Source: a virus (Duplodnaviria; Heunggongvirae; Uroviricota; Caudoviricetes). From it: DNA of 9,744 nt. The notes beneath the pieces are model-generated. The model ran no database searches, was not told where the DNA came from, and saw only the letters and a list, made by a program, of their open reading frames with translations. The stretch is taken from IMG/VR virus record IMGVR_UViG_3300029469_000071. The stretch is one strand, 5' to 3'. Within the stretch, counting starts at the first letter, position 1, and the number at the start of each line of letters is the position of its first letter. A program made the position numbers and the translations under genes. Below are positions 1-9,744 of this stretch, piece after piece.

Positions 1-69
1 CTTGCCGGTGTACATCCAGAACGTCGTTCCCGCACCTTTCGTTTTTGCCAGTGGATTTGGTGTGGTCAT
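1..69 (-). CDS. Major tail protein V-like, N-terminal 23 codons only (gene runs off the left edge)
   Basis: Minus-strand translation from ATG at 67-69 gives MTTPNPLAKTKGAGTTFWMYTGK, which resembles the lambda gpV N-terminus (KGAGTTLW motif, recalled). Perfect AGGAGG Shine-Dalgarno at 72-77 (minus) 5 nt upstream. Position downstream of U matches lambda gene order. Confidence 0.6.
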   Translation of the reverse strand, partial: MTTPNPLAKTKGAGTTFWMYTGK

Positions 70-80
70 TGCCACCTCCT

Positions 81-482
81 TTAATTCGTGTACGTGATCT
101 GGTACGTGATTTCCGCCATCGCCCAGGTGGCCATCTCATTATCACGTTGATAGTTAAAACCGAGAGGGATCAGGGTGTCGATGAGTCCGGAAAGTGCCGG
201 TATATCATTCAGGGCCGGGAAAATGGTGCTCTCCATCCACATATCCAGCTCTGAATCCGGTGCCTGTGCCCGGATGAAGACAGCAATATGCAGAACAGCC
301 TGCCAGTCATCTTCATCCGTCATTTTTCCGGTGTACTGAGCATCACTCAGCCACACCGCCACGGCAGGCAGTTCCTGCGCATCAATAAATGCCGGAAGCC
401 CGTCAAAAAACGTGGCGCTGTCTCCACACTGTTCCCGAAGGCGTGCCAGTACGGCCTGGCGGATTTGTGTATGTCGGTTCAT
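81..482 (-). CDS. Minor tail protein U-like (tail terminator), 133 aa
   Basis: ORF-track protein contains ...ATFFDGLPAFIDAQELPAVAVWLSDAQYTG...DSELDMWMES...DIPALS..., co-linear with lambda gpU (131 aa) as recalled. Start chosen at ATG 480-482, which overlaps the Z stop (TGA 479-481) as ATGA, rather than the ORF-track start at 494. Confidence 0.8.
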   Translation of the reverse strand: MNRHTQIRQAVLARLREQCGDSATFFDGLPAFIDAQELPAVAVWLSDAQYTGKMTDEDDWQAVLHIAVFIRAQAPDSELDMWMESTIFPALNDIPALSGLIDTLIPLGFNYQRDNEMATWAMAEITYQITYTN

Positions 483-1057
483 CGGGTCAGCCATAACCTC
501 AGTTGTTGTTTCAGTGCATACCCCAGCTGTTTCGGCATTTCCGCAGCAATGATGCGGTCGCGGGCATCTTCAAATGTCTGTGTCAGCGGTCCGGACAGCG
601 GGATTTTCACCACATCAATGGGGTAACGATTTTTGCCATCGATACGCCGCATCACATGCCAGCGACCATTCGCCAGTTGCTGAATAAACGCATCCCGGAA
701 AAGATATTTACCCACCTTCAGCACACTGCCACGGTACTGCAGTTTTCCACCACGCCGGGCCAGTCTGACCCGGGCTGTCCCCAGCTTAATGGCAGGCAGA
801 TTGCCCCGGTTAACGCGGATCCTGGCCGTCATTTTTCCTGACGGACTGGCTTTAAACACCCGGACACGCTGACGTACCAGTTTCAGGGGGATCCCTTTCA
901 CCTGGTTATCTCCCGCAACGGTATTCCCGGCAACCTGCCGGGTGGCAACCGAGACCGCTTTCTGTGCCACACGGTTTATCGCCCATGCGCTGGCCTGTGG
1001 CACCATACGGGTATCAAGGCTGTTCAGATTGCGGATGGCATTCTCAAGCCCCTTCAT
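479..1057 (-). CDS. Minor tail protein Z-like, 192 aa
   Basis: Same length as lambda gpZ (192 aa) with co-linear similarity (MKGLENAIRNL..., ...NGRWHVMRRIDGKNRYPIDVVKIP..., ...LGYALKQQLR...). GAGGTG Shine-Dalgarno upstream of ATG 1055-1057. Confidence 0.85.
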   Translation of the reverse strand: MKGLENAIRNLNSLDTRMVPQASAWAINRVAQKAVSVATRQVAGNTVAGDNQVKGIPLKLVRQRVRVFKASPSGKMTARIRVNRGNLPAIKLGTARVRLARRGGKLQYRGSVLKVGKYLFRDAFIQQLANGRWHVMRRIDGKNRYPIDVVKIPLSGPLTQTFEDARDRIIAAEMPKQLGYALKQQLRLWLTR

Positions 1058-1068
1058 CCCACACCTCT

Positions 1069-1344
1069 TTACTCAATAAAGATCATTGGCTTACCGTTAA
1101 AGCGTTCATGCCGTGTGACCGTCCATTGTTGTCCGTCATAAACAACGCGATCCCCGCGCCGTGGGCGGTATCCCGAAGAAAACACCACCAGAGAGACCGC
1201 AGGTCCGGACAGAGCATTCAGCTCTGCCAGTGTTTCTCCCGGGATCACAGTCATATCGACATCATTAATCGAGGCTGTCTTTCCCATCTTTCTGACCGTG
1301 ATCGCATCCATACGCGCTGCCAGCCGGGAAAAGGGATCAGACAT
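1069..1344 (-). CDS. Head-tail joining protein, FII-like, 91 aa
   Basis: Sits between the head genes and Z as in lambda; N-terminus MSDPFSRLAARMDAITVRKMG resembles lambda FII MADFDNLFDAAIARADETIRGYMG (recalled). Start overlaps the stop of the upstream gene (1337-1344). Confidence 0.6.
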   Translation of the reverse strand: MSDPFSRLAARMDAITVRKMGKTASINDVDMTVIPGETLAELNALSGPAVSLVVFSSGYRPRRGDRVVYDGQQWTVTRHERFNGKPMIFIE

Positions 1345-1660
1345 TGAGTTTTACCGGCACTTCTTCTGCACTGGTTCCGGCATCTGCCCAGACAACCCCG
1401 ACCAGCGGATCAGAGCCGCTGTTAGTCAGCTGAACTTTTCCGGACTTCAGATAAACCTTCTTACCCGTTTTCATGTCATCCGTTTTCAGCTTAGGCAGCA
1501 TAAACACACCTTCGGTCATGCCGTCGCCTGTTTCACCCTGTGGAATATCGGTCAGCGCCACCGCAAAAACATCGCCCACCTGCACCAGATCTCCGCTGCT
1601 GATGGCTGCACTGGCAACAATCGCCACCGTTTTTCCTTCTTCTACAAAATTCTTTGCCAT
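1337..1660 (-). CDS. Small head-associated protein, 107 aa (DUF2190-like, possible decoration/cement protein; function uncertain)
   Basis: Start set at the internal ATG 1658-1660 (MAKNFVEEGKT...), which has a GGAG Shine-Dalgarno 6 nt upstream; the ORF-track start at 1705 lies inside hairpins. Glycine- and valine-rich, beta-type composition; sits immediately after the capsid gene. Family assignment is from memory only. Confidence 0.5.
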   Translation of the reverse strand: MAKNFVEEGKTVAIVASAAISSGDLVQVGDVFAVALTDIPQGETGDGMTEGVFMLPKLKTDDMKTGKKVYLKSGKVQLTNSGSDPLVGVVWADAGTSAEEVPVKLNV

Positions 1661-1703
1661 AACTGTCTCCGCACAGCCCCGTTCAGGGGCTGATTTCAGG
1701 TAC

Positions 1704-1723
1704 AAAAAAAGCCCTTACGGGCC
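1704..1723 (-). terminator. Candidate rho-independent terminator or attenuator just downstream of the capsid gene
   Basis: On the minus strand: GCCC-GUAA-GGGC hairpin (GNRA tetraloop, plus 1711-1722) followed by a 7-U run (plus A-run 1704-1710), between the capsid stop (1747) and the next gene start (1660). Confidence 0.4.
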
Positions 1724-1746
1724 ATCAGAGTTGTTGTCTGCGACGT

Positions 1747-3705
1747 TTACGCCGTACATTTCACCAGACCGCGGTGATCAACTGGCGCGACACCGGCGTC
1801 AATACGCACTTTCGTTGTCACGCCATCCACACTGAAGCCCTCCATCTGATCAATATATGGCGTATCCACACCGTTGAGATAAGCCACTTCAATCGTATCG
1901 GAGCCTTTTGACGCAGCCAGGTAGAAGGTGGTCTGGCTGTTATCATCAAGACGAGGCTCTGCAATAACGGTCGCAAAATCTTTCACCGGGTTAATAATAC
2001 CGGCGTTAATGTCAGCCCCCTTGACACTTGAGGAGCGAATGACCTGGTTAGCAACAGACTCCATCGCCGTCGGTACCAGTACGAACGCAGGACGAATATT
2101 CAGATGACGCTCCCCCTCTTTCTGAACGCGCATCAACTGGCGGGCTTTATCCAGCGATGCCACGTCCATTGCAGCGCTCTCCAGTACGTTTGCATGTTTC
2201 GCTTTATCGAACAGACTTACATTATCTGTGGAGATTTTCGGGTTAGACGTCAGAATGGCATAAACCAGATCGGCAATAGTGGATTTCGCCGCACGGCCCA
2301 GTTTCATCGGGACATCGGTCAGCATATTCAGATCATCATTGATAATGGCCTGACGGGTGATACTGAACAGCTCGCCATAGGTCGCCAGTGCAATAGTGGC
2401 CTGTTTATCTCCGGTGGTGACGTATTTATATTCCGCCCCTTCACGCACCTGACGCAGAGCACTGAAGCCCCCCATACCCACACGATGGGCAATTTTAAAA
2501 TCAGACAACTGACCTTTCCGCGTCCACTGTTCATAGGTTTCAGGGGCATCTTCCCAGCCCTGCAGAATGGCTTTGTTCGCAACATCCAGCAGAATATTAC
2601 CGAAGTCAGACGTACTGTGTGTGAACGCCGCACCGACCATCTGCATCGGGTTATAACTGGAAACACCAATACCACGTTCAGTCAGTGACATACGGGCATA
2701 TTCACGCAGGGTCATCCCGTTGTAGACATTATCACGTTCGGTTTTTTCAAATCCGGCACGCGCCATCAGCGCCTGGCGGATCCCGTCCCCCACAAAATTA
2801 CCGTTACCGGCATAAATATGAGCCGGGGTATTTTTATTGGATGGCGTGGACTCGCGCCCCATCTCGTTCAACAGCTTTTCGCGGGCCTGCTCCAGCGAAC
2901 ATTCAGGATCGGCAAGACACTGAGCCTGCAGCGTCTGATAACGCCCGCCAAACATGGCAAACAGATCATTAATACCGTTTACACGCGCTTTTTGCTCTGC
3001 CAGTACCTGCGCACGGATACTGTTTTCATCCACCACGGGTGCTGCTGCCTGCACTGGCGTCCGGGAGGCTTCAGATTCATTATCCTGTACGCGTGGAGCA
3101 CTGTTGCGTGGCGGAGTAATCATGTTTCGAATGGATTCCGGCATCTTTTTAAATTCCTCTGTACGTTTTGACTGAATACATGCCATTGCCTTAACGGCTG
3201 GCGTTACCTGATCAGCAAATCCATGTGCCAGACATTCGGCACCGGACATCCAGGTCTCATCCGCCAGCATGGCAGCAATTTCATCGGTGGTTTTCCCGGT
3301 TTTCTGTGCATAAGCGGGTAACAGAACCGCCTCAACCTTATCGAGCAGGTCGGCATAGGTGCGCATGTCCTCCGCATCACCGCCCGTAAAGCCAAATGGT
3401 TTATGAATCATCATGAAGGTGTTTTCCGGCATAATGACCGGGTTTCCCACCATCGCAATGACCGACGCCATTGACGCCGCCACACCGTCGACATAAACGG
3501 TAATGGACGCACCATGTGTTTTCAGCGCATTAAAAATGGCGATGCCTTCAAAGACATCGCCACCCGGTGAATTAATATGGAGATTAATGTGGGTGATATC
3601 GCCCAGTGCATTCAGATCACTGATAAACTGCTTCGCTGTAACACCCCAGAAACCAATCTCGTCATAAATATAAATATCCGCGTCACTCTGGTGACCAGCC
3701 TGCAT
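1747..3705 (-). CDS. Prohead protease (ClpP/S49-like) fused to HK97-fold major capsid protein, 652 aa
   Basis: N-terminal part has a ClpP-like peptidase signature (ADIYIYDEIGFWGV...INLHINSPGGDVFEGIAIFNALK...VDGVAASMASVIAMVG). C-terminal ~320 aa is capsid-like. Start set at ATG 3703-3705 (MQAGHQSDADIYIYDEIG), 14 nt after the portal stop (TAA 3719-3721); the ORF-track start at 3966 would overlap 250 nt of the portal frame. Confidence 0.75.
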   Translation of the reverse strand: MQAGHQSDADIYIYDEIGFWGVTAKQFISDLNALGDITHINLHINSPGGDVFEGIAIFNALKTHGASITVYVDGVAASMASVIAMVGNPVIMPENTFMMIHKPFGFTGGDAEDMRTYADLLDKVEAVLLPAYAQKTGKTTDEIAAMLADETWMSGAECLAHGFADQVTPAVKAMACIQSKRTEEFKKMPESIRNMITPPRNSAPRVQDNESEASRTPVQAAAPVVDENSIRAQVLAEQKARVNGINDLFAMFGGRYQTLQAQCLADPECSLEQAREKLLNEMGRESTPSNKNTPAHIYAGNGNFVGDGIRQALMARAGFEKTERDNVYNGMTLREYARMSLTERGIGVSSYNPMQMVGAAFTHSTSDFGNILLDVANKAILQGWEDAPETYEQWTRKGQLSDFKIAHRVGMGGFSALRQVREGAEYKYVTTGDKQATIALATYGELFSITRQAIINDDLNMLTDVPMKLGRAAKSTIADLVYAILTSNPKISTDNVSLFDKAKHANVLESAAMDVASLDKARQLMRVQKEGERHLNIRPAFVLVPTAMESVANQVIRSSSVKGADINAGIINPVKDFATVIAEPRLDDNSQTTFYLAASKGSDTIEVAYLNGVDTPYIDQMEGFSVDGVTTKVRIDAGVAPVDHRGLVKCTA

Positions 3706-3718
3706 CCTGAACCAGGAA

Positions 3719-4201
3719 TTATTCTTCGGACTGGTCGTCGGTGTGCTGCGGCTCCTGTCGTTTCGTTGCGGCACTGCTGCCTCCTTTATCACTGGCCGGA
3801 TCGGTATCAAATACCAGATCCAGCTTGCGGTTTTCATCAATTTCGGCCTTGCGCCGACGTTTGACATCATCCGGATTACGACCACCAGCACGTACCCAGT
3901 CTGATTCTGTCGCCGCTCCACCACGAATCTGGATTTTCCAGGCCTCAGCCTCCTTAACAGGGTCAATCCACGGCATCACTGGTCCGGAATACACCGCGGT
4001 ATACAGTGAAGAACGGTCAAGATCGCGGGGTAGCCTGATAACACCGGATGCCACAGCCTGTTTCAGCCAGGCACGATACATCGGGCGGGTGACGGCACCA
4101 ATAAACCAGTCCTGCAGGATCAGGTAGCCATCAGTAGACTCAACCAGTTCCTGACGCTGGGCGCTGTACCTTCTGCCCGTAAGGTGAATGGTAAGGCGCT
4201 T
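3719..4201 (-). pseudogene. Portal protein (lambda gpB family), C-terminal ~160 codons only; 5'-truncated
   Basis: Minus-frame translation ...[20 protein letters not shown]...IDPVKEAEA... matches the recalled lambda gpB C-terminal region (...MFLCWLEEAIVRRVVTLP...IDGLKEVQEA...). The frame is open only to 4201 (in-frame stop at 4202-4204), whereas intact portals are 400-530 aa. Confidence 0.6.
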
Positions 4202-5368
4202 TCAGCGGATATAACACTGACGCCGAAAGATATTGGTACGCTTAACTCAACAACAATGTCATTCAGCGGTGGTGCTGGTTGGTTCAAATTAGCAACGGTA
4301 ACCATGCCACAGGCGAGTTCTGTTGTTTCAATTACGTTGATTGGTGGCGCGGGATTTAACGTGGGGTCACCTCAACAGGCAGGTATATCTGAACTTGTTT
4401 TGCGTGCAGGTAATGGTAATCCGAAGGGGATTACTGGTGCTTTATGGCAGCGCACATCGACAGGGTTTACAAATTTTGCCTGGGTCAATACATCTGGTGA
4501 TACTTACGATATTTACGTTGCAATCGGAAATTATGCGACTGGTGTAAATATTCAATGGGATTATACCAGTAATGCCAGCGTAACGATTCATACGTCACCA
4601 GCATATTCTGCTAATAAGCCGGAAGGGTTAACGGACGGTACAGTTTATTCACTCTATACGCCATCAGAGCAGTTTTATCCGCCTGGCGCACCAATCCCGT
4701 GGCCATCAGATACCGTTCCGTCTGGTTATGCCCTGATGCAGGGGCAGACTTTTGACAAATCTGCCTACCCGAAACTTGCAGCCGCTTATCCGTCAGGCGT
4801 GATCCCTGATATGCGTGGCTGGACGATTAAGGGCAAACCCGCCAGTGGTCGTGCCGTATTGTCTCAGGAACAGGACGGCATTAAATCGCACACCCACAGC
4901 GCCAGCGCATCCAGTACGGATTTGGGGACGAAAAACACATCGTCGTTTGATTACGGAACCAAATCCACGAATAACACCGGGGCGCATACCCATAGTATTA
5001 GCGGGACTGCAAATAGTGCCGGTGCGCACCAACACAAGAGTTCCGGTGCATTTGGTGGCACGAACACGAGCATTTTCCCTAATGGTTATACCGCGATTTC
5101 AAATCTAAGCGCGGGGATTATGAGCACAACAAGCGGTAGTGGCCAGACTCGTAATGCAGGGAAGACATCATCAGATGGTGCTCATACCCACTCGCTGTCC
5201 GGCACTGCTGCAAGCGCAGGCGCACATGCACATACTGTCAGTATTGGTGCTCATACGCACTCCGTTGCGATTGGTTCACATGGACACACCATCACCGTTA
5301 ACGCTGCTGGTAACGCGGAAAACACCGTCAAAAACATCGCATTTAACTATATTGTGAGGCTTGCATAA
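4184..5368 (+). CDS. stfQ: Side tail fibre protein, C-terminal receptor-binding fragment (5'-truncated), 394 aa as read from a GTG
   Basis: Tail-collar-like motif ([36 protein letters not shown]) followed by repeated GAHTHS / GAHAHT / GSHGHT His-rich motifs typical of Stf and T4 gp37-like fibre tips. The ORF opens with GTG, has no convincing RBS or promoter, and abuts the portal fragment. Symbol is from recalled K-12 Qin synteny. Confidence 0.7.
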
Positions 5369-5943
5369 TGGCATTCAGAATGAGTGAACAACCACGGACC
5401 ATAAAAATTTATAATCTGCTGGCCGGAACTAATGAATTTATTGGTGAAGGTGACGCATATATTCCGCCTCATACAGGTCTGCCAGCAAACAGTACCGATA
5501 TTGCACCGCCAGATATTCCGGCAGGCTTCGTGGCTGTTTTCAACAGTGATGAGGCATCGTGGCATCTCGTTGAAGATCATCGGGGTAAAACGGTTTATGA
5601 CGTGGCTTCCGGCGACGCGTTATTTATTTCTGAACTCGGTCCGTTACCGGAAAATGTTACCTGGTTATCGCCGGAAGGGGAGTTTCAGAAGTGGAACGGC
5701 ACAGCCTGGGTGAAGGATACGGAAGCAGAAAAACTGTTCCGGATCCGGGAGGCGGAAGAAACAAAAAACAACCTGATGCAGGTAGCCAGTGAGCATATTG
5801 CGCCGCTTCAGGATGCTGCAGATCTGGAAATTGCAACGGAGGAAGAAATCTCGTTGCTGGAAGCATGGAAAAAGTATCGGGTATTGCTGAACCGTGTTGA
5901 TACGTCAACTGCACAGGATATTGAATGGCCAGCACTGCCGTAG
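5368..5943 (+). CDS. tfaQ: Tail fibre assembly protein (Tfa chaperone), 191 aa
   Basis: Directly follows the tail fibre gene with a TAATG stop/start overlap (5366-5370). Length and sequence ([79 protein letters not shown]...) match the lambdoid Tfa family as recalled. Confidence 0.85.
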
Positions 5944-6040
5944 GGTAAAACATATAAATTCTATAATTAGATGTATCTTTCCATTTACGGCAAGGAAGGG
6001 GGCTTGGAACACGTAAAGCATCTCACACCGAGATTATTTT

Positions 6041-6631
6041 TTATATGTCAGGTGTCTGAAGTTTTGCTTTGGCTCTTAAAATGGTTTGCCGCGAGGTTTT
6101 GAATTCCCGGGCAATGGCACTTATACTTACACCTGACTTAATTCGTTCGAATACCACCTGTTTCTGTTCTTCATTTAACACAGGTGGTCGACCAAAACGT
6201 TTCCCTGCGCCGCGGGCTCTTACTATCCCGGAATGAGTGCGTTCAAGTAAAAGGTCTCGTTCAAATTCAGCGACTGCTGAAATTACTTGCATCATCATTT
6301 TTCCTGTTGGACTGGTCAGGTCAATGCCACCCAATGCTAAGCAATGCACTCTGATACCTGTTTCGGTCAGTTGTTCCACTGTTTTCCTGATATCCATTGC
6401 ATTACAACCAAGGCGATCCAGTTTTGTCACAATCAATTGATCACCACATTTCAGGCGAGCAAGCAACCGGTTAAAACCAGGACGCTCACTGGTTGCTGCT
6501 GAGCCGCTAATGTGTTCTTCGATTATTTGCTGAGGTTTGATTTTAAAACCTGCACTTTCGATTTCCCGGCGTTGATTTTCGGTGGTCTGATCCAGCGTTG
6601 ATATCCGACAGTAAGCAAAAATTCGAGACAT
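6041..6631 (-). CDS. pinQ: Serine recombinase of the DNA-invertase type (Pin family), 196 aa
   Basis: N-terminal resolvase/invertase catalytic domain with the conserved serine in YCRISTLDQ, the [11 protein letters not shown] motif, and a C-terminal helix-turn-helix ([22 protein letters not shown]). Convergent with tfa, as recalled for pinR/pinQ in K-12 Rac/Qin. Choosing Q over R rests only on the neighbouring ydfK/ydfJ/ydfI. Confidence 0.85.
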
Positions 6632-6947
6632 AGTGAGACTCTATACGAAATTGGTGTTCATATCATAATGCATCTCAGAAAATAATTATGATTATTTTTG
6701 TGCATATTTGTATGTACACGTTCGAAAATAAACGAATGCGTATGCAACCCCGTAATTTTGGTGAGACCCAAAATCGATTTTGTGAAAAATGGCTTTAACT
6801 CGGTTTGTTTTTCGAGTTCCGGGCGGACTCAAGGAAGAAGAATAGTGTTGCGTGTTATTTTAACCAGATTTCAAGTTGTTTGGTCGTGGAAAAGTGGAGC
6901 AAAATGTTGTTAAAGTGGAAAAATGATAAAAAAGTAAGTTTATTATA

Positions 6948-7181
6948 TTACATTTTACCATTTAAATTTTGGTTGTCTTTAAGAACTGATATCGCTGTTT
7001 GTAATAATTCTTTGTTATCCAGCCATGATTTTTTCTTTATGTTTCCTTCAATGTAATCAAGCAATGTTCTGGTATTGATAGGTCTTCCCTGTTTTGCTAC
7101 TTCCACTACAGCATCCCCTAGGATAATTCTTACTTCAGGAAGCTGCGCAGGGAACCACTTTAGGGTGTCTTTTGATTTCAT
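6948..7181 (-). CDS. ydfK: Small prophage-borne cold-shock-induced protein YdfK/YnaE family, 77 aa
   Basis: Start set at ATG 7179-7181 (MKSKDTLKWFPAQ...), which has an AAGGAA Shine-Dalgarno 8 nt upstream; the ORF-track start at 7214 adds 11 residues with no RBS. Sits between pin and ydfJ. Identity and the cold-shock annotation are recalled, not verified. Confidence 0.7.
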   Translation of the reverse strand: MKSKDTLKWFPAQLPEVRIILGDAVVEVAKQGRPINTRTLLDYIEGNIKKKSWLDNKELLQTAISVLKDNQNLNGKM

Positions 7182-7450
7182 GAAGATATTCCTTAAAATA
7201 TTATTGATTTTCATTGCGATATTGTATGTCTGATTCAGGATATGTTGACTTATACATCGGTTTTGTCTGGGTTATTGGATATGCCAATCCCTAATTTTAT
7301 TAGGGCATGACTAAAAATGCTGAATATGATAAGGAGAGATGTGATTATCAGTATGCTGTTCATATAGCCTCGAATTAGTAATGTGTTATATATGATATAG
7401 TTGACAATTTTTATCTTGGGTGTTCTTAAAGTTCGTAGATAAACATTGTC
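7182..7450 (-). promoter_or_regulatory. AT-rich upstream/leader region of ydfK; putative promoter and structured 5' UTR
   Basis: About 270 bp of strongly AT-rich sequence upstream of ydfK with several -10/-35-like hexamers on the minus strand (for example TTGTCA at 7401-7406 read on minus) and a perfect 7-bp hairpin CCCTAAT-TTT-ATTAGGG at 7289-7305. No single promoter can be singled out from sequence. Confidence 0.3.
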
Positions 7451-7682
7451 GTTTCAGGTATACAGGAATGCTAACAGGTGGCAGCAAAAATCAGGCGGTT
7501 TATGGCGCAAGCTGAAGCGGCAACTGCAAACTATCTTATGCAGAGACTCTACACGGATTGGGTTTAAAAGTATACATAGATAACAGTTTTTATCTGAAGA
7601 AGAAAAATATCAAGGTGATATAGCCTATATGCCTATGATGCGGAGGAATGAATGTGATGGGAGTGATGTATCTGAATAGTTG

Positions 7683-7723
7683 AAAAACCGCAGACACGCC
7701 TTATGCAAGAACGTGCTGCGGTT
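7683..7723 (-). terminator. Candidate rho-independent terminator on the minus strand
   Basis: Imperfect inverted repeat: AACCGCAG-A-CACG (7686-7698) pairs with CGTG-CTGCGGTT (7712-7723) around a 13-nt loop. Read on the minus strand the stem is followed by a 5-U run (plus A-run 7683-7687 overlapping the last stem pairs). GC-rich stem inside an otherwise AT-rich region. Confidence 0.35.
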
Positions 7724-7966
7724 GGCTGGTAAATTTTTCGATAGTGTGAGTATTGAATGATTTCCAGCCGTTCTTGATTTTACGCATAAATCCATGAAAA
7801 AACTACTTATCTGTTGGGGAGTTTTTTTGGGGCATATATGGGACAGAAATAGGCCCCAGATAGACACTGAGATCGAACTTAGGATGCTTTTTAAAAAATG
7901 CAACTATCTGAAAAAACCTAGAAAACGCCAAGGAAACCACAGGATGGGAAAAAACACCTGTGAATT

Positions 7967-9250
7967 ATGGATTTCCAGTTATATTCGCTCGGCGCAGCGT
8001 TAGTGTTTCATGAAATATTTTTTCCTGAATCATCAACGGCAATGGCGTTAATTCTGGCAATGGGAACCTACGGTGCAGGTTATGTGGCGCGTATTGTCGG
8101 AGCATTTATTTTCGGCAAAATGGGCGACAGAATAGGGCGTAAAAAAGTGCTCTTTATTACCATCACCATGATGGGGATCTGTACCACCTTAATTGGTGTG
8201 TTACCGACCTATGCACAGATTGGTGTTTTTGCACCCATCTTGCTGGTGACGTTGCGTATTATTCAGGGGTTGGGTGCAGGTGCGGAAATTTCCGGTGCCG
8301 GTACGATGCTGGCGGAATATGCGCCAAAAGGTAAGCGCGGAATTATCTCCTCATTTGTGGCTATGGGAACTAACTGCGGAACCTTGAGCGCAACGGCAAT
8401 CTGGGCCTTTATGTTCTTCATTCTCAGTAAAGAGGAACTGCTGGCGTGGGGATGGCGTATACCGTTCCTGGCGAGCGTTGTCGTGATGGTCTTTGCTATC
8501 TGGTTGCGTATGAATCTGAAAGAAAGCCCGGTCTTTGAGAAGGTTAACGACAGTAACCAACCGACAGCAAAACCTGCACCTGCTGGTAGCATGTTCCAGA
8601 GCAAATCCTTCTGGCTGGCAACAGGGCTGCGTTTTGGTCAGGCGGGTAACTCCGGGTTAATTCAGACTTTCCTTGCAGGCTATTTAGTGCAGACGTTATT
8701 GTTTAACAAAGCAATTCCAACAGATGCATTGATGATCAGTTCGATTCTCGGCTTTATGACCATTCCGTTCCTTGGTTGGTTATCCGATAAAATTGGTCGC
8801 CGGATCCCGTATATTATTATGAATACCTCCGCGATTGTGCTGGCATGGCCAATGCTTTCTATCATTGTAGATAAAAGCTATGCCCCGAGCACCATTATGG
8901 TTGCACTGATTGTGATTCATAACTGTGCGGTGCTGGGATTATTTGCTCTGGAAAACATTACCATGGCAGAAATGTTCGGCTGTAAAAACCGCTTTACCCG
9001 GATGGCTATTTCTAAAGAAATTGGTGGTCTTATCGCTTCCGGTTTTGGTCCTATCCTGGCGGGTATTTTCTGCACCATGACGGAATCCTGGTATCCGATC
9101 GCCATTATGATCATGGCATATTCAGTGATTGGTTTAATCTCTGCGCTGAAAATGCCAGAGGTGAAAGACCGTGATTTAAGTGCGCTGGAAGACGCTGCGG
9201 AAGATCAACCGCGTGTTGTAAGAGCTGCGCAACCTTCCAGAAGTCTGTAA
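7967..9250 (+). CDS. ydfJ: MFS transporter (metabolite:H+ symporter family), N-terminally truncated at the prophage junction; probable pseudogene or remnant, 427 aa
   Basis: Contains the MFS loop motif GKMGDRIGRKK and multiple hydrophobic spans. The ORF begins at ...DFQLYSLGAALVFHEIFFP..., which aligns with the end of TM1 in relatives such as KgtP ([20 protein letters not shown], recalled), so the N-terminal tail and most of TM1 are missing. In-frame stop at 7961-7963 and no Shine-Dalgarno before the ATG. Confidence 0.8.
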   Translation: MDFQLYSLGAALVFHEIFFPESSTAMALILAMGTYGAGYVARIVGAFIFGKMGDRIGRKKVLFITITMMGICTTLIGVLPTYAQIGVFAPILLVTLRIIQGLGAGAEISGAGTMLAEYAPKGKRGIISSFVAMGTNCGTLSATAIWAFMFFILSKEELLAWGWRIPFLASVVVMVFAIWLRMNLKESPVFEKVNDSNQPTAKPAPAGSMFQSKSFWLATGLRFGQAGNSGLIQTFLAGYLVQTLLFNKAIPTDALMISSILGFMTIPFLGWLSDKIGRRIPYIIMNTSAIVLAWPMLSIIVDKSYAPSTIMVALIVIHNCAVLGLFALENITMAEMFGCKNRFTRMAISKEIGGLIASGFGPILAGIFCTMTESWYPIAIMIMAYSVIGLISALKMPEVKDRDLSALEDAAEDQPRVVRAAQPSRSL

Positions 9251-9259
9251 ACCCTTAAT

Positions 9260-9290
9260 CCCTTCTCTTACCGGAGAGGGGATTTTTATT
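9260..9290 (+). terminator. Candidate rho-independent terminator after ydfJ
   Basis: Hairpin CCCTTCTCT-TACC-GGAGAGGGG (9260-9281, with G-U pairs) followed by ATTTTTATT (9282-9290), starting 10 nt after the ydfJ stop. Confidence 0.5.
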
Positions 9291-9338
9291 CATATAACAA
9301 AACATATAGCTTGCCATATTTATATTTAAGGAATTGTT

Positions 9339-9744
9339 ATGGGAAATAATTTGTTATCAGCAAAAGCGACACTCCCTGTTTATGATCGTAATAACCTGGC
9401 CCCAAGAATTGTTCATTTAGGCTTTGGTGCATTTCACCGTGCGCATCAGGGTGTGTATGCCGATATTCTTGCTACGGAACATTTCAGTGACTGGGGATAT
9501 TATGAGGTCAACTTAATCGGCGGCGAACAGCAAATTGCCGATTTACAACAGCAAGATAATCTTTATACCGTTGCGGAAATGTCGGCCGATGTGTGGACGG
9601 CTCGCGTCGTTGGCGTCGTTAAAAAAGCCTTGCACGTACAGATTGATGGCTTAGAAACCGTGTTGGCTGCGATGTGTGAACCGCAAATCGCGATTGTCTC
9701 TCTGACAATCACCGAAAAAGGGTATTTCCACTCTCCGGCGACCG
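9339..9744 (+). CDS. ydfI: Mannitol dehydrogenase family oxidoreductase (putative D-mannonate oxidoreductase), N-terminal part; runs off the right edge
   Basis: AAGGAA Shine-Dalgarno 6 nt before ATG 9339. N-terminus [42 protein letters not shown] carries the GxGxFHRAHQ nucleotide-binding signature of UxuB/MtlD-type dehydrogenases. Open to the end of the window. Confidence 0.8.

Follow-up and report, generated by a model that had tools for sequence, protein, structure and literature searches.

Phages of the lambda type integrate by means of a tyrosine integrase and a short core, with a long P arm that carries arm-type sites and with sib/tI beyond it. The closest described relatives of the locus analysed here occupy ydfJ. 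Qin was mapped to the 5' end of this gene, with the promoter and 28 codons lost (Ramisetty and Sudhakari 2019, PMC6379469). An att sequence of 18 to 19 bp was reported for the prophages at this site, and the attP of PPydfJ-R of the O26:H11 strain 11368 was sequenced by PCR from the excised phage (Nakamura et al. 2021, PMC8112680). Likewise, the genome paper of SE11 has an entry for a lambda-like prophage that lies between ydfJ and rspB. The Qin/ydfJ junction is already published, and the core, the coordinates and the 28-codon count found here agree with the literature; our additions are small, namely, the start codon within the core, the conserved stop codon of the phage arm and occupancy figures for 5426 genomes.

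The window (the whole stretch of 9,744 nt that was analysed, IMG/VR record IMGVR_UViG_3300029469_000071) contains such a junction, and there is very little doubt that its positions 7961 to 7978 are the attR (P-O-B') junction of a Qin-type (PPydfJ) lambdoid prophage. The initial annotation, made from the letters alone, had put the end of the prophage at about 7955 to 7966 and had proposed an alignment with an uninterrupted orthologue. We made this alignment three-way, with the empty site of strain SE15 as attB, the left Qin end of K-12 (MC1061) as attL and the window as attR; it gave the junction and an 11-bp att core, and no observation spoke against the assignment as attR. The two att features are as follows.

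7961 to 7978, plus strand: imperfect 18-bp att, TGAATTATGGATTTCCAG; the attB version has 19 bp, TGAATTTATGGATTTCCAG
7965 to 7975, plus strand: exact 11-bp common core, TTATGGATTTC, shared by attB, the K-12 attL and attR and containing the ATG at 7967 to 7969

The aligned sequences read ...GCGCTTGAATTTATGGATTTCCAGTTA... in attB, ...GCGCTTGAATTTATGGATTTCAAGAGT... in the attL of K-12 and ...ACACCTGTGAATTATGGATTTCCAGTTA... in attR of the window, and they diverge on opposite sides at the two ends of the prophage. Homology to uninterrupted ydfJ starts at 7961 to 7965 with a sharp break that recurs in thousands of genomes. The last phage-specific base in the ungapped comparison is 7964, within the range first proposed, and in occupied genomes the split attB query matches as two halves that share 19 nt. 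The length of 18 or 19 bp is also that of the "18- or 19-bp att sequence" in S7 Fig of PMC8112680.

If the prophage had split ydfJ, the missing 5' piece should be at its other end, as the initial annotation had supposed, and in K-12 MC1061 it was indeed found there. The attL of K-12, about 20 kb away between rspB and an integrase (tyrosine-type recombinase) pseudogene, keeps the native RBS region and codons 1 to 28 (MTIEKHERSTKDLVKAAVSGWLGTALEF), followed by the same core. Since K-12 still has the missing 84 nt at the opposite Qin end, nothing was deleted, and ydfJ appears to have been split by reciprocal recombination. K-12 and TUM9754 served as stand-ins for the attL of the window, whose own left end lies outside it; by analogy with K-12, the 5' fragment belonging to the window prophage would be at that end. 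The recombinase pseudogene next to rspB at the K-12 attL is disrupted by IS2, and TUM9754 has lost the attL end, including the tyrosine integrase, to IS1/IS3.

We therefore propose the following course of events, based on comparison of the three att sites and supported, as far as the integrase mechanism is concerned, by the published sequencing of attP. A tyrosine integrase would have recombined the phage attP with the bacterial attB inside codons 27 to 32 of ydfJ (E-F-M-D-F-Q), the two sites sharing the 11-bp core within the imperfect att of 18/19 bp. After integration, the integrase end (attL) would have kept the first 84 nt of ydfJ with their RBS and with rspA-rspB upstream, and codons 29 to 455 would have come to lie at attR, behind a noncoding phage arm of about 600 nt. 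The phage arm provides an in-frame TGA and the core the ATG of Met29, and because the core supplies this ATG, a clean 427-codon ORF is seen. The product is most likely a poorly expressed, nonfunctional leftover.

The reading frame at the junction has two relevant features.

7961 to 7963, plus strand: in-frame TGA, derived from the phage arm, which closes the ydfJ frame just upstream of Met29
7967 to 9250, plus strand: ydfJ remnant, codons 29 to 455 of the MHS-family MFS transporter YdfJ, an intact 427-codon ORF

As read from the window sequence, the ATG at 7967 to 7969 opens a 427-codon ORF that ends at 9250. Its translation begins with MDFQLYSLGAAL, the same frame upstream reads ...GKKHL*I, and a single codon (ATT) separates the TGA from the ATG. 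This ATG is the Met29 codon of full-length YdfJ and lies inside the att core, and the TGA is kept in all five phage-arm variants examined. GGAG, AGGA or GAGG was not found 5 to 12 nt upstream of the ATG; the nearest purine-rich stretch is GGGA, some 17 to 20 nt upstream. Compared with SE15, ydfJ of the window is shorter by exactly 28 codons (84 nt), and neither its native RBS nor the rspAB unit precedes it. The initial annotation had described an ORF that starts in the middle of TM1, has lost some 25 to 30 N-terminal residues together with the native promoter and RBS, is preceded by an in-frame stop and lacks a Shine-Dalgarno sequence. Each of these points held, with the number of residues now fixed at 28 and with promoter and RBS left with the 5' fragment at the rspB side in K-12.

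MFS fold domains were detected in the remnant by Pfam (MFS_1, 2.6e-37; Sugar_tr, 6e-25). However, in the full-length protein the MFS_1 match starts at profile position 2, at residue 21, whereas in the truncated protein it starts at profile position 33. Since the alignment begins only there, the ORF opens within TM1, past the conserved SGWLGTALEF segment. The complete TM1 with the conserved N-terminal ...AAVSGWLGTALEFMDFQLY is absent: the ORF begins with MDFQLY, and profile positions 2 to 32 are unmatched. With the limits of TM1 taken from the Pfam profile coordinates, the loss amounts to about 8 to 12 residues, or about a third of TM1, including residues that are invariant across 77 species. 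Kyte-Doolittle hydropathy did not give the limits of TM1, an amphipathic segment that includes E27 and D30, and a PDB sequence search with full-length YdfJ gave no match at an E value of ≤1e-10. Since TM1 and the N-terminal segment are incomplete, we class the ORF as a truncated remnant or pseudogene. PGAP likewise calls ydfJ a pseudogene ("incomplete; missing N-terminus") in K-12 and 10 other genomes.

Is the remnant expressed? Downstream of the gene there is one element that bears on its transcription.

9257 to 9284, plus strand: strong intrinsic terminator (12-bp stem and T run), directly after the ydfJ stop; the same sequence is at 5298 to 5325 of locus L001

The next gene, ydfI, starts at 9339. 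Since a consensus scan of the intact locus revealed no terminator in the rspB-ydfJ interval and since a strong terminator follows just past ydfJ, ydfJ is most likely the last, cotranscribed gene of an rspA-rspB-ydfJ unit, with ydfI separate. At the occupied site, a promoter scan, also by consensus only, gave no plus-strand candidate in 7200 to 8200, and the phage genes nearby all face away from the junction.

We consider it unlikely that the remnant still works, by transcription from the phage arm or by read-through, translation from Met29 independent of a Shine-Dalgarno sequence and selection on a shortened transporter. Some observations do fit such a function. The ORF is uninterrupted in 11 of the 11 occupied loci, and an A-rich tract before the ATG, conserved in all arm variants, might help translation. 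In K-12, ydfJ RNA changed upon induction of DicC in an RNA-seq study (PMC11430063), and the Keio ydfJ deletion was azithromycin resistant in one high-throughput screen (PMC9405208). The dN/dS ratio is 0.023 for the remnants and 0.027 for intact genes, a comparison of little power: it is uninformative because occupancy is polyphyletic, integrations are recent and recurrent and most of the divergence predates integration, and between D9 and K-12 there are 0 differences. Against a working remnant stand the missing promoter-like and Shine-Dalgarno-like elements, the orientation of the nearby phage genes, the lost TM1 residues and the verdict of the annotation pipeline. A silent or nonfunctional remnant is, thus, the much more probable outcome.

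We give somewhat less credence still to a further idea, which comes in two forms: the ATG of the att core, together with the conserved A-rich leader, might produce a shortened membrane protein that is selected for, or excision and reintegration by an intact integrase might act as a reversible switch of the third gene of rspA-rspB-ydfJ. As to such a switch, which would be active lysogeny of the comK/phi10403S type, the integrase of K-12 is a pseudogene, and the near-identical alleles of D9 and K-12 show only recent gain or loss. Indeed, ydfJ of D9, whose site is empty, is identical to that of K-12 over all 1284 nt, and therefore prophage gain or loss at the site is recent relative to sequence divergence.

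Occupancy was determined by megablast of window positions 7600 to 8400 against 5426 complete E. coli genomes. The whole query was matched in 2920 of them (~54%), which have this phage arm joined to ydfJ, and a large second class matched from query position 362 (window position 7961) only. With the reciprocal query from SE15, a contiguous, intact rspB-ydfJ site was found in 2009 of the 5426 genomes (~37%); elsewhere the query was split in two. In SE15 and six further E. coli strains, ydfJ encodes 455 amino acids and lies 57 nt after rspB, and in K-12 MC1061, TUM9754 and other genomes with a full match, the left flank is prophage. The junction was the same to the base in 11 occupied loci, which include O157:H7, O111:H8 and Escherichia ruysiae and represent five arm variants; hence, the site has been used repeatedly. 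The prophages of O157:H7 and O111:H8 at this site carry effectors.

In 77 of 80 Enterobacterales species representatives with a YdfJ orthologue, the reading frame starts 28 to 31 codons further upstream and includes a near-invariant ...AAVSGWLGTALEFMDFQLY segment. The phage junction is present in each of the other three, which are the representative of E. coli, a "Caldithrix" metagenome-assembled genome (MAG) contig and E. ruysiae. In the E. ruysiae representative, the same junction and arm are present, with the core TTATGGATTTT, which has T for the final C; the site is, thus, used outside E. coli sensu stricto. On contig SMXE01000224.1 of the "Caldithrix sp." MAG, the Qin-ydfJ junction is joined to a remnant that matches YdfJ residues 29 to 455 at 100% identity, and the contig is almost certainly E. 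coli DNA that contaminates the bin.

The 427-amino-acid form has long been listed as the YdfJ protein of K-12, and the ORF runs cleanly from ATG to stop, but the idea that it is the native full-length gene, with the prophage boundary further upstream, has next to no probability and is refuted by the longer orthologues (7 of 7 empty-site E. coli strains and the 77 of 80 species representatives) and by the break of the empty-site homology at 7961 to 7965. Orthologues that share the start and the upstream sequence but have no prophage were looked for as well, and neither the 7 empty-site E. coli strains nor the 77 species start at the methionine of the remnant.

Knockout or overexpression data on the 427-amino-acid form should not be taken to describe the native 455-amino-acid transporter, since this form is truncated by a prophage. 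In K-12, as in more than half of the E. coli strains sequenced, "YdfJ" is such a remnant, which matters mainly for annotation, and the ydfJ site is a heavily used lambdoid integration hotspot that gathers effector-carrying prophages in STEC. Current understanding is unchanged by our analysis of the junction.

On the phage side of the core, the following elements were found.

7827 to 7964, plus strand: conserved P arm of about 138 bp, common to every arm variant at the site
7814 to 7821 and 7827 to 7834, plus strand: tandem TTGGGG(A/C)(G/A) repeats at the outer margin of the P arm, from a k-mer comparison of the arms
7686 to 7723, minus strand: stable GC-rich hairpin some 250 nt away from the core, followed on this strand by a U-rich tail

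The segment from 7827 to 7964 is shared by the K-12/Qin, VE-V11-M/KKa014, SA31-1 and O111/O157 types of arm, whose sequences differ further left, and it is presumably the arm that binds integrase and accessory factors. The inner copy of the repeat (7827 to 7834) is invariant in all five arm variants, and two more copies in the same orientation are in the P' arm of K-12 at +70 and +80 (about +70 to +87 from the core). Repeats of the TTGGGGCA type in both arms are candidate arm-type integrase sites with weak statistics, the sharing of repeats between the arms being near chance and one shared 8-mer alone being within chance expectation. A second copy of GATTTCCAG, which comprises the right part of the core and the first bacterial bases, is at 7759 to 7767 in the context TGAATGATTTCCAG, about 210 nt inside the phage arm; a repeated 9-mer is expected by chance in 600 nt.

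The hairpin folds with -20.7 kcal/mol (z = -3.8), and in KKa014 it has one compensatory change from C-G to A-T and no U run. Since the minus strand is the sense strand of int across attP in the circular phage, the hairpin may lie downstream of int across attP, that is, in the position of tI/sib of lambda. The region from 7583 to 7720 (plus strand) also gave a subthreshold Rfam match to CssrB (chromosome-encoded Shigella sRNA B), with 28.5 bits versus a gathering score of 76 and an E value of 0.002 for the 1.6 kb searched; this match ends in the hairpin. In strain PSS-08-2, an IS1 (1307 to 2004 of locus L101) is inserted about 340 nt upstream of the ATG of the remnant. It was considered as a sign of decay of the remnant, but this was rejected since the insertion is in the phage arm and not in ydfJ. 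Several other genomes (H48, H53) also have IS1 next to ydfJ.

Further left, gene coordinates were transferred from the annotation of TUM9754, which is colinear at 99.66%.

7250 to 7363, minus strand: ynfT, small, the last annotated prophage gene before the junction
6948 to 7181, minus strand: ydfK, a prophage cold-shock gene
6041 to 6631, minus strand: pinQ, a prophage serine invertase (Pfam Resolvase and HTH_7)
5368 to 5943, plus strand: tfaQ, a tail-fibre assembly gene, a prophage late gene
4184 to 5368, plus strand: 3' part of the side tail-fibre gene, a prophage late gene

With ynfT, ydfK, pinQ, tfaQ, stf and capsid and portal genes, the DNA on the side of the junction away from ydfJ is, to judge from its gene content, a lambdoid prophage. 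At 5711 to 5909 on the plus strand, wholly within the 3' half of tfaQ, Rfam gave a strong match to IS009 (220.9 bits; gathering score, 117). At 4166 to 4168, the minus-strand 3' part of the portal gene with the downstream head and tail genes (1 to 4168) is fused to the middle of the plus-strand tail-fibre gene. The sequence at window positions 2 to 4168 corresponds, in reverse complement, to head and proximal-tail genes of a ydfJ prophage (99.16% identity to TUM9754), and the fusion would fit one endpoint of an inversion, some 17 kb long, within the prophage. Of the 5426 complete E. coli genomes, 0 have this junction, an exact search with the 42 nt that span it gave no match in the GTDB species-representative genomes, and a search at this position for the Gin/Pin-type crossover-site consensus, as a test for the invertase, gave no matches. 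In no complete E. coli genome does a single region hold at least 80% of the window.

Qin-type prophages have undergone much rearrangement (IS1, IS2, IS3, internal deletions and the inversion junction at 4166 to 4168), but it is so improbable that ydfJ was truncated through a simple deletion, or through rearrangement by an IS, at the border of a prophage integrated elsewhere that this reading can be set aside: it is effectively refuted by the comparison of attL, attR and attB, in which the missing 84 nt are seen at the opposite end of the prophage with the same 11-bp core after them, by a breakpoint that is the same to the base across five arms and E. ruysiae and by the experimental recovery of attP (PMC8112680).

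Integration at an att site within ydfJ, thus, remains the preferred reading, and it places the locus next to several known systems. With Qin of K-12, the window prophage shares the integration site, the truncation by 28 codons, the flanking ynfT-ydfK-pinQ-tfaQ genes and the phage arm (99.35% identity over window positions 4671 to 9744). It differs from Qin in keeping more of the tail-fibre gene (from 4166 instead of about 4671) and in the inverted head genes to the left, which are absent in K-12 and in the 5426 complete genomes. The PPydfJ prophages of STEC and EPEC also have their attB in ydfJ and an att of 18/19 bp, and in the O157:H7 and O111:H8 loci examined they have an identical conserved P arm and junction, but next to the arm these prophages carry DinI-like and NleC/NleG effector genes and not ynfT, ydfK and pinQ. 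The arrangement resembles attP × attB recombination of lambda in its short identical core, its P arm of about 140 bp, the tandem repeats in both arms, the hairpin about 250 nt past the core on the int sense strand and the tyrosine recombinase at the P' side, where the repeats and the hairpin would have the roles of arm-type sites and sib. Lambda, however, integrates between genes, whereas the attB used here is part of a coding sequence, and integration leaves ydfJ unrepaired. An attB within a protein-coding gene is also used by Rac (5' end of ttcA) and by e14 and phage 21 (3' end of icd). With e14 and phage 21, icd stays functional since its 3' end is replaced by one from the phage, and Rac alters the N terminus of TtcA only (PMC6379469). 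In contrast to these three, the phages in ydfJ bring no replacement N terminus but a stop codon.
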